Source: Thermoplasmatota archaeon
GTDB lineage: Archaea > Thermoplasmatota > E2 > JACPAO01 > JAHFTW01
Reading direction: 5' to 3'
DNA length: 40,650 bases
Assembly: GCA_041600695.1 (NCBI GenBank)
Contig: JBFIJP010000002.1
Location: 1-40,650 of the forward strand
The notes beneath the pieces were generated by a model. It ran no database searches, was not told where the DNA came from, and saw only the letters and a program-made list of their open reading frames with translations. The position numbers were made by a program, and so were the translations under genes. Below are positions 2,081 to 15,420 of the stretch, piece after piece (positions within the stretch are counted from its first letter, which is position 1; each line of letters starts with the position of its first letter).

Positions 2081-2120
2081 GCGCCGAACAAGGGAAAACC
2101 CGTGAATAACTAGTTATGTC
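2081..2120 (+). other. Array-proximal recombination junction (short attC-like or attI-like simple site)
   Basis: GCGCCGAAC-AAGGGAAAACCCGTGA-ATAACTAGTTAT-GTC: an R''-like GCCGAAC box, a perfect 12-nt palindrome ATAACTAGTTAT (2106-2117), and GTTATGTCGC (2113-2122), which is the exact complement of the R'' of attC1. Confidence 0.5.
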
Positions 2121-2223
2121 GCCACGCCGCCCGCGCATCCTCTGGAGCAACAGCGGCTCCAAGTCTAGTCTGCCGCGACCGTTATGAGGACCCGGCCCCT
2201 TACAGGCAACACCGAGCCAGACT

Positions 2224-3666
2224 ATGCCCGAAGCTCCGCGACTCTTCATTTCGTATTCCTGGTCCAACAAGCAGCACGAGGATTGGGTGCTGGCCCTTGC
2301 CTCCGAGCTCCGCGAAAACGGAATAGATGTAATCCTCGACAAGTGGGATTTGAAAGAAGGTCACGACGCCTTCGCGTTCATGGAGCAAATGGTGACCGAC
2401 AAGACCGTCGAGAAGGTTGCCATCATTTGCGACAGACGCTATGCTGAGAAAGCCGACGAACGACAGGGCGGAGTTGGAGCCGAGACCCAGATCATTTCCC
2501 CCGAGCTCTACGCCAAGGCCAGTCAGGACAAGTTCGTCGCCATCTTGGCCGAACGAGATGACAACGGCGATCCGTACCTGCCAGCGTACTACAAGTCTCG
2601 AATCTACATTGATCTAAGCGACACAGAGCGCTACGGTCAGAATTTTGATCAACTGCTTCGTTGGGCTTGGAACAAGCCTCTTTATCGCAAGCCCGAGATT
2701 GGAACGGCGCCCACGTTCTTGACGTCGGAGGATGCACCAACCATTCCGACCGCCGGGCGAGCACGGCGAGCAATTGAGACCCTCAGGCAAGGGCGACCAC
2801 AAGCAACCGCTGCGTTTATCGAGTACCTCGAACACTTTGCCCAAGAGTTGGAAGCATTTCGAATGGAGCCCTCCGGCCAGGATCATGGGGATGCTGTCGT
2901 TGCCAATGTCGAAAATTTCACGCCGTTTCGCACGGAACTCTTGGGAGTCATTGCAACTGCGATCCAATACTCGCCAGGTGATGCGACGTGGCAGGCTATC
3001 CACCGCTTCTTTGAGCTTCTCCTTCCCTACAACGACAAGCCTGCCGACGTGAGTTCGTGGAAGGAGTGGGATTTCGACAATTTCCGGTTCATCACCCATG
3101 AGCTGTTCCTGTATGTAATCGCTGAACTCATCCGCCGCCAGCGCTTCGACGGCATCAAGACGCTTCTAGACGGTCACTACTATGTCGGTGCGGAATGGCG
3201 CCGCTTCAACATGGCGCTGGTCCCCTTTCAGGTCATTCGAGAGCCACTAAGGTCTCTTGACGCGCGCAATCAACGGGATGGTAGCCGCCGAGTTTCGCCT
3301 CACGCCGACCTCATAGAAGCGCGGCACAACACATCCGGCTACGAGATGGCTGAGCTGATTCAGGCCGATCTATTGCTATCGTTGCGGACTCTTATCCATG
3401 AACCGCTCAGAACCGGCAACGTTTGGTGGCCGGTTACGATTGTTTACGGCAGCCGGCGGTCTGGTCCATTCGAAATTTTTGCGAGGTGCCAATCAATGGC
3501 CTTCTTTGACAAGGTCAAGGTGGCCCTCGCAATTGAGAATCTGGATGAACTTCAACCGGCAAAGGACGCACTTGAACAGGGAGCCTTAAGCCGGGGCGGT
3601 CTCGCCGAAATCTTCTCCAACCCTGCGGCCATGATTGCCTTGGACAAATGGGGCACGTTGCCTTAG
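2224..3666 (+). CDS. TIR/SEFIR-like domain protein with ~330-aa uncharacterised C-terminal domain (cassette 1)
   Basis: N-terminus LFISYSWSNKQHEDWVLALASELRENGIDVILDKWDLKEGHDAFAFMEQMV...VAIICDRRYAEKADERQGGVGAETQII matches the prokaryotic TIR/SEFIR-type flavodoxin-like fold pattern. Confidence 0.75.
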   Translation: MPEAPRLFISYSWSNKQHEDWVLALASELRENGIDVILDKWDLKEGHDAFAFMEQMVTDKTVEKVAIICDRRYAEKADERQGGVGAETQIISPELYAKASQDKFVAILAERDDNGDPYLPAYYKSRIYIDLSDTERYGQNFDQLLRWAWNKPLYRKPEIGTAPTFLTSEDAPTIPTAGRARRAIETLRQGRPQATAAFIEYLEHFAQELEAFRMEPSGQDHGDAVVANVENFTPFRTELLGVIATAIQYSPGDATWQAIHRFFELLLPYNDKPADVSSWKEWDFDNFRFITHELFLYVIAELIRRQRFDGIKTLLDGHYYVGAEWRRFNMALVPFQVIREPLRSLDARNQRDGSRRVSPHADLIEARHNTSGYEMAELIQADLLLSLRTLIHEPLRTGNVWWPVTIVYGSRRSGPFEIFARCQSMAFFDKVKVALAIENLDELQPAKDALEQGALSRGGLAEIFSNPAAMIALDKWGTLP

Positions 3667-3672
3667 CGGGGC

Positions 3673-3736
3673 GACATAACAAGACGTTCAAGCGGACGCA
3701 CGCTGCGGCGCGCGCCGCTTAACTCCATCGTTCGGC
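3673..3736 (+). other. attC site 1
   Basis: GACATAAC-AAGAC-GTTCAAGCGGACGC-ACGCTGCGGCGC-GCGCCGCTTAAC-TCCATC-GTTCGGC. The arms pair with two extra bases in the 5' arm. From memory it is very similar to the classical aadA-type 59-base element. Confidence 0.85.
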
Positions 3737-3778
3737 GCCTCCCGGGTCTGCCCGGAAATCGCGCAGCAGCCCTCGCGA

Positions 3779-14499: not shown

Positions 14500-14564
14500 A
14501 CTCAACCCGCTCGCGCGCCTCCGCGCGCTCCGGCGCGCGACGGGTTAGTTCGAGGCCGTTAGCA
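14500..14564 (+). other. attC site 6, right part (L''-loop-L'-R')
   Basis: ACTCAACCCGCTCGCGCGCC-TCCGCGCGCTCC-GGCGCGCGACGGGTTAGT-TCGAGGCC-GTTAGCA. Confidence 0.8.
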
Positions 14565-14654
14565 AGCCTGAGCATGGCGTTAGAGCAGAGCGCCGACGTA
14601 TGGCCTTGGGCGCCATAGCTAAGTAGTGGGTCAACCTATGGTGTTTTGCACCAT

Positions 14655-14918
14655 ATGAAGGCGAAGGTCAAGGTCATCGAGCGCGACCATTCGTGGACCG
14701 TGATCGACCTAGAGCTGGGCTTTCGTATCTGCAACAGCTATCAAGACTCCAAGGACACACCTTCACCTAGCCACATTCACGATCGCTTCGATGAAGTTGT
14801 TGCATCGTGTAGCGCCGAGAACGCTCAACAGGCCTTCCAGGCCATGCTGGCCTATCGGCAACAGAGAAGTGGCTTGGACATCGATGCCTTGGAAGACGAG
14901 GTGAAGAAATGGAAGTGA
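14655..14918 (+). CDS. Small hypothetical protein, first gene of a TA-like pair (cassette 7)
   Basis: 87-aa ORF overlapping the next gene by 10 nt. No motif recognised. A TTG at 14646 is also possible. Confidence 0.45.
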   Translation: MKAKVKVIERDHSWTVIDLELGFRICNSYQDSKDTPSPSHIHDRFDEVVASCSAENAQQAFQAMLAYRQQRSGLDIDALEDEVKKWK

Positions 14919-15340
14919 CCATCCGTCGCACAGAGCCGGTCAGTGCGATCATCGAACGCATCCAAGCCGAGTACGGAGACCTAGAGGGCGCCCAAGAGGC
15001 ATTGAAGTCCGACCCATCCGCCATGGAAGCAACCTACTGGTTCAAGGAACTGGCCAAGGACCCATCGATCATCAACGAGACGACCACAACCACTAGCCTC
15101 GTGGATGTCGACCCGGCCAACCTGCCAAAACTCACGACCACACGCCAGGACCTATTGAAGCAAGTGCGAACCATGACGCACGCGACAATCCAAGATGTCG
15201 TCAACGCCACAGGCCGCAACTACAAAAACGTCCACGACGACCTCAACCTGCTGGAATCCCTCGGCTTCATCCAAAGCCACCGCCACGGAAAAGAACGCAT
15301 CGTGGAAGCCTTCGCCGCCGAACTCATCATCGCTGCATAA
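14909..15340 (+). CDS. Putative DNA-binding protein with C-terminal winged-helix domain (cassette 7)
   Basis: TTTRQDLLKQVRTMTHATIQDVVNATGRNYKNVHDDLNLLESLGFIQSHRHGKERIV has an HTH-plus-wing pattern, as in archaeal antitoxin-like regulators. Confidence 0.55.
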   Translation: MEVTIRRTEPVSAIIERIQAEYGDLEGAQEALKSDPSAMEATYWFKELAKDPSIINETTTTTSLVDVDPANLPKLTTTRQDLLKQVRTMTHATIQDVVNATGRNYKNVHDDLNLLESLGFIQSHRHGKERIVEAFAAELIIAA

Positions 15341-15345
15341 CCACG

Positions 15346-15420
15346 GGCTTGCTAACAAGTGGTAATGTACGTCTGCCGTGGACGCTGTCCCGGTGCTGAT
15401 TTGGAAACGCGTCGTTGGAG
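15346..15420 (+). other. attC site 7: clear R'' box, 3' half degenerate or uncertain (end of array)
   Basis: GGCTTGCTAAC-AAGTGG... is an 11/11 complement of the cassette 7 start GTTAGCAAGCC (14558-14568). No convincing L''/L' pairing was found. The GTT at 15414 is taken as a provisional R'. Confidence 0.45.

Follow-up and report, generated by a model that had tools for sequence, protein, structure and literature searches.

A probable seven-cassette integron array, with no integrase on the contig and an archaeal-lineage insertion sequence in one attC site, on a contig of a Thermoplasmatota archaeon

The contig JBFIJP010000002.1 of the Thermoplasmatota archaeon assembly GCA_041600695.1, taken here in its entire length of 40,650 bp (hereafter the window), very probably carries between 2.1 and 15.4 kb an integron gene array of seven cassettes, set in the chromosome of an archaeon that is probably a member of Thermoplasmatota. 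The array region spans about 13 kb, and, as no integrase was found on the contig, it is classified as a CALIN (cluster of attC sites lacking integron-integrase), defined as two or more attC sites that are separated by less than 4 kb and have no integrase nearby; herein we found six attC sites spaced by 0.8-3.5 kb and no integrase on the 40.6-kb contig. An earlier sequence-only reading of this DNA had proposed that an integron-type array, the attC sites of which are near-canonical, is present in an archaeal chromosome with no integrase in view. This core proposal is supported by the analysis described below, and all the coordinates given for it turned out to be correct after direct reading of the region 1-16,600.

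An attC site is expected to carry an R'' box ending in AAC, an R' box starting with GTT and an imperfect L''/L' repeat, within a total length of about 57-141 nt. The six sites of the window, all on the plus strand, are 60-78 nt in length, keep AAC and GTT invariant, and have spacers of 5 nt and 6-8 nt: attC1 at 3674-3736 (63 nt), attC2 at 7182-7246 (65 nt), attC3 at 9954-10019 (66 nt), attC4 at 10776-10835 (60 nt), attC5 at 12270-12329 (60 nt) and attC6, which is interrupted by an insertion sequence (IS) and thus lies in two parts. The 5' part of attC6 (13286-13298) includes the R'' box CCTAAC, the spacer and the first copy of a TCA core, and the 3' part (14498-14564) includes L'', the loop, L', the spacer and the R' box GTTAGCA. 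Folding of the bottom strands as DNA gave hairpins with bulges on the '' arm for all six sites, with z scores between -1.8 and -3.6 (-3.6 for attC2, -3.1 for attC4, -3.3 for attC5 and -3.0 for attC6 rebuilt without the IS), and in comparison with 200 shuffles four of the six sites beat all, while attC1 was matched by 9 and attC3 by 13. In agreement with the earlier proposal, two extrahelical bases are present in the 5' arm of all six copies, one at alignment column 17 (always C) and the other at column 24 (A or C). Among these sequences, only six in number, compensatory changes altered both sides of 6 of the 10 stem pairs; as many as 97.4% of the stem cells are paired, compared with 17-40% after sliding the partner by 1-3 columns, and the observed covariation score was reached by none of 500 shuffles.

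Cassette insertion is also indicated by the boxes at both ends of each cassette. The first nucleotides of cassettes 1 to 7 are complementary to the R'' box at the 3' end of the same cassette, at 10/10, 9/10, 9/10, 9/9, 9/10, 10/10 and 11/11 positions, respectively; for instance, the start of cassette 2, GTTCGGCGCC, pairs with its own R'' at 7179-7188. For a quantitative comparison, all 49 combinations of start and R'' were scored over the nine positions past the invariant GTT/AAC. The own-cassette pairs gave 6-8 matches of 9, in contrast to 1-5 of 9 for R'' and R' within one attC, which belong to two different cassettes, and the true assignment was the single best among 5,040 permutations, so that the pairs listed in the sequence-only reading beat each of the 5,039 others. 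This is the footprint expected for former circles cut at G|TT. Each cassette would once have been a circle, inserted by an IntI-type tyrosine recombinase through the folded bottom strand of its attC by recombination at G|TT, which would leave its own TTRRRY at the 5' end of the cassette and R''-L''...L'-G at the 3' end. We infer that the insertions were made by IntI and that the cassettes could still be excised or captured by IntI in trans. Such an enzyme might be encoded by another part of the genome or, once the DNA has been released, by a different cell. A circularised cassette would yield junctions such as attC1(L'-G)|TTATGTCGCC.

Both ends of the array are remnants, since the terminal sites are degenerate or truncated and do not fold. 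The left junction (2081-2119, plus strand), herein called c0, consists of the R''-like GCGCCGAAC, AAGGG, 18 nt and GTTATGT, and provides, with G at 2113, the G|TT at the opening of cassette 1; its 37-nt segment at 2083-2119 gave a z score of -1.1 and just 8.9 bits with the covariance model described below. It is either a remnant of attC or a simple site of attI-like sequence (ATAAC-TA-GTTAT). At the right end (c7, 15346-15420), only R'' and 5 nt (AAGTG) are left, and no hairpin is formed within 15350-15420 (z -0.3). The fold tests thus rule out both as intact attC sites, which corrects the sequence-only reading. The array is partly decayed, with both terminal sites truncated and a dead IS in attC6. 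Two observations on these ends may be added. The R'' of c0, GCGCCGAACAA (2081-2091), is identical to that of attC2 (7180-7190) over 11 nt and is complementary to the first bases of cassette 2. Possibly, c0 is a leftover of a second copy of the cassette 2 attC. In addition, c0 and c7 are both truncated near the position of IS insertion, after R'' and 5-6 nt. Truncation through IS-mediated deletion is a speculation, and no IS-end sequence was seen at c0 and c7.

A covariance model, named R1, was constructed from the six sites of the window and their hand-derived structure. With filters off and both strands searched, R1 found in the window exactly six sites, all on the same strand, at 75.3 (attC1), 66.7 (attC2), 69.9 (attC3), 74.3 (attC4), 76.3 (attC5) and 40.2 bits (14490-14564 of attC6), the next match being at 13.7 bits (E 0.2), so that outside 3.6-14.6 kb neither strand gave another attC. 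In unrelated loci of archaea and bacteria, 335 kb in total, the model gave no match at E<0.1. In two class 1 integrons it matched only the aadA-type attC, on the correct strand, with 58.3 bits (E 6e-14) for R100 and 55 bits for a P. aeruginosa plasmid. The search of the window against Rfam at the gathering threshold gave no match, indicating that the sites belong to no curated RNA family. Scanning of Joint Genome Institute (JGI) metagenomes for the R''-L'' motif AACAANTCNNTCCAGCCGAC yielded at least 120 contigs, and R1, applied to 80 loci of these motif-bearing contigs, identified 117 sites, a contig often having several of them on one strand. Some of these contigs encode an IntI1 homologue beside the array, as in contig L033 (52% identity over 320 residues), and therefore the sites represent an attC class of wide distribution, for which IntI is the usual recombinase. 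The sequence-only reading had cited the aadA 59-base element, pointed out its likeness to the sites of the window, and suggested that the likeness would be a sign of cassette traffic between domains. The sequence cited was correct, bases 3-60 being 100% identical to R100 and present in 2,515 plasmids, and the likeness holds, attC1 being 75% identical to the aadA1 site; what follows is that both belong to one attC class, common in metagenomes; cross-domain traffic is not shown by likeness alone.

The cargo of the seven cassettes, all oriented on the plus strand, is foreign in composition and, as judged from profile matches, would be largely of defence or addiction type, including bSEFIR, TIR, HepT-like and AbiEii-like proteins, a divergent homologue of bacterial-type MurA and several genes without assigned function. 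Cassette 1 (2114-3730) carries an open reading frame (ORF; 2224-3666) predicted to encode a SEFIR/TIR anti-phage protein of the bSEFIR type, with a full-length match over residues 1-445 to PADLOC PDLC03957 (E 3e-109) and with Pfam SEFIR and TIR_2 domains. Cassette 2 (3731-7240) has two large ORFs (3779-5392 and 5468-7060) without family match in profile searches. Cassette 3 (7241-10013) includes an ORF of 386 aa without assigned function (7411-8571) and an ORF for a MurA-like protein (8581-9837; UDP-GlcNAc 1-carboxyvinyltransferase) that matches TIGR01072 at 393 bits, just at the cutoff, and NF006873 at 403 bits; its nearest named relatives are MurA of Bacillota (40-44% identity), and one unnamed match reaches 48%. 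The protein could serve for target bypass of the fosfomycin type, or might have another role. The sole other contig on record for this MurA-like protein measures 2,818 bp and is thereby similar in length to cassette 3. Cassette 4 (10014-10829) carries an ORF (10099-10752) with weak DUF4145 and HepT-like matches. In cassette 5 (10830-12323) a TIR-domain protein (11070-11822; Pfam TIR_2, E 3e-25, and PADLOC TIR models) is followed by a small protein without assigned function (11819-12196). Cassette 6 (12324-14558), of which the attC is interrupted by the IS, encodes a weakly matching nucleotidyltransferase of AbiEii/DUF2204-like type (12629-13234), and cassette 7 (14559-15356) has two ORFs, 14646-14918 and 14909-15340, the latter with a Pfam match to the HVO_A0114-like winged helix; the last element of this cassette, at 15346-15356, is R'' GGCTTGCTAAC, the remaining part of attC being missing. 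All cargo ORFs are on the top strand as noted earlier, the sole exception to top-strand orientation being the transposase gene of the IS. Beyond the last R'', a low GC content of about 0.60 continues for about 0.6 kb (15357-16000), a segment in which neither attC nor recognisable gene was found; it may be decayed cassette DNA.

The bSEFIR cassette was detected in another array. A homologue with 81% amino acid identity (P0002) is encoded at 1906-3555 of JGI contig L144 between two attC sites that were detected by R1 but are of a different, 96-nt type, and the boundary sequences of the cassette, GTTATGTCGCCA and GCGACATAAC, are identical in the window and L144. The neighbours differ from those in the window, a cassette for an Mrr-type nuclease being located upstream of the homologue in L144. 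A further homologue (72% identity; 2788-4260 of L145, a contig with 48% GC) is likewise followed by GACATAAC. At the level of sequence comparison, the recurrence of this cassette in two arrays is direct evidence for what would be a mobile unit. The present array thus adds predicted anti-phage cargo of bSEFIR and TIR type to the archaeal cassette pool, together with one cassette found in two different arrays.

The element inside attC6 (13299-14497, minus strand, 1,199 bp) is a member of the IS110/IS1111 family and is flanked on both sides by TCA. It shows the organization described for IS1111 (PMC11187229): a DEDD-type transposase (Pfam PF01548, DEDD_Tnp_IS110, and PF02371, Transposase_20), 14-bp subterminal inverted repeats (13304-13317 and 14477-14490, matching at 13 of 14 positions), and a non-coding region of 126 nt (13318-13443) downstream of tnp, which codes for the transposase. 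The transposase gene (13444-14450, minus strand) is a pseudogene, as its frame is shifted near codon 17 and interrupted by TGA at 13963-13965, and its reconstruction was confirmed by an intact relative of 336 aa with 88% identity (P0121). The 25 best matches of the transposase among 72,556 plasmids are all haloarchaeal, with 34-38% identity, and relatives with 62-63% identity were found in metagenome-assembled genomes (MAGs) of Thermoplasmatota and Euryarchaeota beside genes for AglB, L24e, S28e and L7Ae; the latter relatives are not in attC sites. The intact copy with 88% identity, on contig L149 from another metagenome, occupies the same position and orientation in a different attC, and both copies (n=2) sit between the R'' spacer and L'' with TCA on the flanks. 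With the flanking TCA counted once, the L149 target reads ...CAACTAACAAGTCACTCGACCCGACCG..., sharing 19 of 19 nt with attC4, and when the IS of the window is taken out likewise, a canonical attC6 is recovered, AAC-AACTC-ACTCAACCCG....

The non-coding region of the IS contains two 9-mers identical to the sequences abutting the two inverted repeats, and both matches together were reached by none of 5,000 shuffles and by none of 370 other window segments tested. Comparison of four ISs (those of the window, L149, L146 and L147) revealed that these two segments change with the flanks, GATGA versus GCTGA for one and GAGTGA versus TTTTGA versus CGTTGA for the other, within an otherwise conserved scaffold. 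Such covariation between segments and flanks is what an RNA-guided IS of the seekRNA or bridge type would show. The sequences thus suggest, for two copies only, that an archaeal IS110/IS1111 element is programmed to attC.

Several points weigh against the interpretation as an integron array in an archaeal chromosome. Neither an integrase nor attI nor a Pc promoter could be demonstrated. R1 was derived from the window sites themselves, so that its independent support consists only of the matches elsewhere. The joins of the array at about 2.1 kb and at 15.4-16 kb are given by the assembly alone, and an independent Logan contig (L001, from SRR29257386) is 100% identical over 2088-7211 only, ending inside c0 and attC2. 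Comparison with the left flank of L002, a Thermoplasmatota MAG and the nearest relative in synteny, did not provide an empty site, because L002 diverges right after the aldo-keto reductase gene shared with the window. The steps in GC content and in GC content at third codon positions (GC3) fit with acquired cassettes, but a chimera would give the same steps.

As to the integrase, the full contig was searched, and its reported absence from view is borne out: no Phage_integrase match was obtained in the Pfam scan of the sizeable ORFs of the window, and tblastn with IntI1 against the window gave nothing even at E=10. The arrangement of a complete integron, with intI beside attI and the array, is thus not found within the contig. 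The array could be part of a complete and active integron instead of a relic, if intI and attI are located on another contig of this genome or were located beside c0 before a rearrangement. For this possibility speak the five intact attC sites, with cassette-specific pairing of R'' and R' well kept, the attI-like end of c0 (ATAAC-TA-GTTAT, to be compared with TTTAAC-GTTAGAG of the complete integron in L033), the breaks of independent assemblies at attC sites, a possible consequence of variable cassette order, and the fragmentation of MAGs, two archaeal In0 genomes having had arrays on other contigs (PMC9668308). Taking into account the 40.6-kb contig without integrase, the truncation of both end sites and the two lesions in the attC6 IS, together with a related 93%-complete MAG that has 16 attC sites and no IntI (PMC9668308), we consider it possible but rather doubtful. 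Because of that same MAG, it may also be proposed that this Thermoplasmatota lineage keeps attC arrays without IntI genome-wide, the cassettes being acquired and reshuffled either only by integrases of other organisms acting in trans or by a native recombinase other than IntI. This proposal appears unlikely to us; if it is true, an archaeal RNA-guided IS homing to attC would be evidence of long residence of the arrays in archaeal genomes.

Backbone DNA encloses the array on both sides. The left backbone (127-1816, plus strand) carries a SAMP2/ThiS-like gene and an aldo-keto reductase gene (Pfam), and this pair is found in the same order in L002, with 55% and 60% amino acid identity. In the right backbone, Pfam searches identified archaeal markers, namely the genes for TFS (25341-25658, minus strand), aEF-1beta (25765-26061, plus strand), RpoK (32263-32457, plus strand) and ribosomal protein S2 (32454-33107, plus strand). 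The GC content is 56-63% over 2-16 kb as against 64-72% outside, and GC3 is 0.65 for the cassette ORFs as against 0.82 for the backbone ORFs (p=6e-5). ARAGORN detected no tRNA in the window, indicating that the array is not a tRNA-linked island. A 40-mer from the window backbone was absent from the GTDB species representatives, and no independent contig was obtained across either edge of the array. It seems that attC sites are points of interruption in assemblies of the sample, for which repeats, low coverage or variable cassette order could be responsible.

That the contig is a chimera, in which a cassette array of bacterial origin was wrongly fused with archaeal DNA in assembly or binning, would agree with the sharp GC and GC3 steps at both edges, with the presence of the same attC class beside IntI1-like genes in metagenome contigs, and with the stop of the Logan contig 7 nt into c0. 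Two separate mis-joins would however be needed, as high-GC3 DNA with archaeal gene content is present on both flanks; the lineage of the IS within the array is archaeal, the junctions are not connected by any long repeat with the remainder of the contig, and CALINs on contigs with archaeal markers are known from a related lineage (PMC9668308). A chimeric origin is accordingly very improbable. The view that the repeats are ordinary intergenic palindromes (repetitive extragenic palindrome-like elements or terminator hairpins) resembling attC by chance, for which one may cite only GC-rich hairpins just downstream of ORFs, is effectively refuted, because it leaves unexplained the complementarity of the first 9-11 nt of each unit to its own box, the match to the aadA1 attC and the presence of the same gene between attC sites of another array.

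Two other repeats were noted in the backbone. A perfect direct repeat of 113 nt, at 1-113 and 227-339 (226 nt apart), is located at the contig start upstream of the SAMP2-like gene, and could be an assembly artefact of the contig end or a real tandem element. Between the genes for H+-pyrophosphatase and Usp (35204-35631), two 130-nt copies starting at 35204 and 35502 are 86% identical, and a tandem pair of 55 nt (98% identical) lies between them at 35389-35500.

Integron arrays in archaea are not new. Integrons were identified in 75 archaeal MAGs of nine phyla, mostly as CALINs and with only six IntIs, and IntI1-dependent recombination of attC with attI was observed in E. coli for nine archaeal attC sites (Ghaly et al. 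2022, Sci Adv, PMC9668308), so that the description of archaeal integrons as functionally unexplored in the sequence-only reading was wrong. The seven-cassette array described here is a clean further example of a type of element reported already in 2022. The nearest case is the Thermoplasmatota MAG GCA_019347805.1 (E2/UBA9212, desert soil), which is 93% complete and has its 16 attC sites in 4 CALINs, with no IntI, three of the contigs that carry these arrays having archaeal markers; its tested attC recombined with attI1 under IntI1 at 4e-2 (PMC9668308). Like the window, it carries attC arrays on archaeal contigs without IntI, and the tested attC is 80% identical to attC3, with the same GTTCCAGCCGACCC...GGGCGGCTGAACTCG stem. 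The window differs in that backbone flanks its array on either side within a single contig and in that one attC holds an IS; relative to the archaeal CALINs of 2022, moreover, the best relative of a window backbone gene is just 60% identical. The combination of backbone on both sides, archaeal markers in cis and an IS of archaeal lineage in attC makes the case unusually clean.

Similarity is also apparent to the sedentary chromosomal integrons and CALINs of bacteria, with respect to cassettes on the same strand, mutually similar attC sites and a cargo rich in defence and toxin-antitoxin-like genes, while the window has only seven cassettes, an archaeal host and no integrase on the contig; anti-phage defence genes in bacterial integron cassettes have been documented (bioRxiv 10.1101/2024.07.02.601686). 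With class 1 integrons the window shares neither intI1, attI1 nor resistance gene, and its host is archaeal, but its attC sites fall into the class of the clinical aadA attC. The aadA1/aadA7 attC (59-base element) is of the same length class (60 nt) and has in common the layout R''-5 nt-L''...L'-6 nt-R', and aadA1 carries in its L'' arm the same two extra bases (C, A), six pairs apart, whereas differences are seen in the loop and in the R boxes. The sites of the window would probably be accepted by class 1 integrons of bacteria.

Finally, the IS in attC6 may be compared with the IS1111-attC group of bacteria (ISKpn4, ISPst6 and ISPa25), the seekRNA of which targets one end of attC sites (PMC11187229). 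The window transposase is distant from the whole plasmid collection, the best matches being haloarchaeal at 36-38% identity, and the window copy is a pseudogene, in which respects it differs from this group. In common are, however, the DEDD transposase, the 14-bp subterminal repeats and the long non-coding region downstream of tnp, as well as, so far as two independent copies (window and L149) indicate, a fixed position and orientation within attC. An archaeal RNA-guided IS programmed to attC, as suggested herein, is the sole lead from this array beyond the questions raised in 2022.

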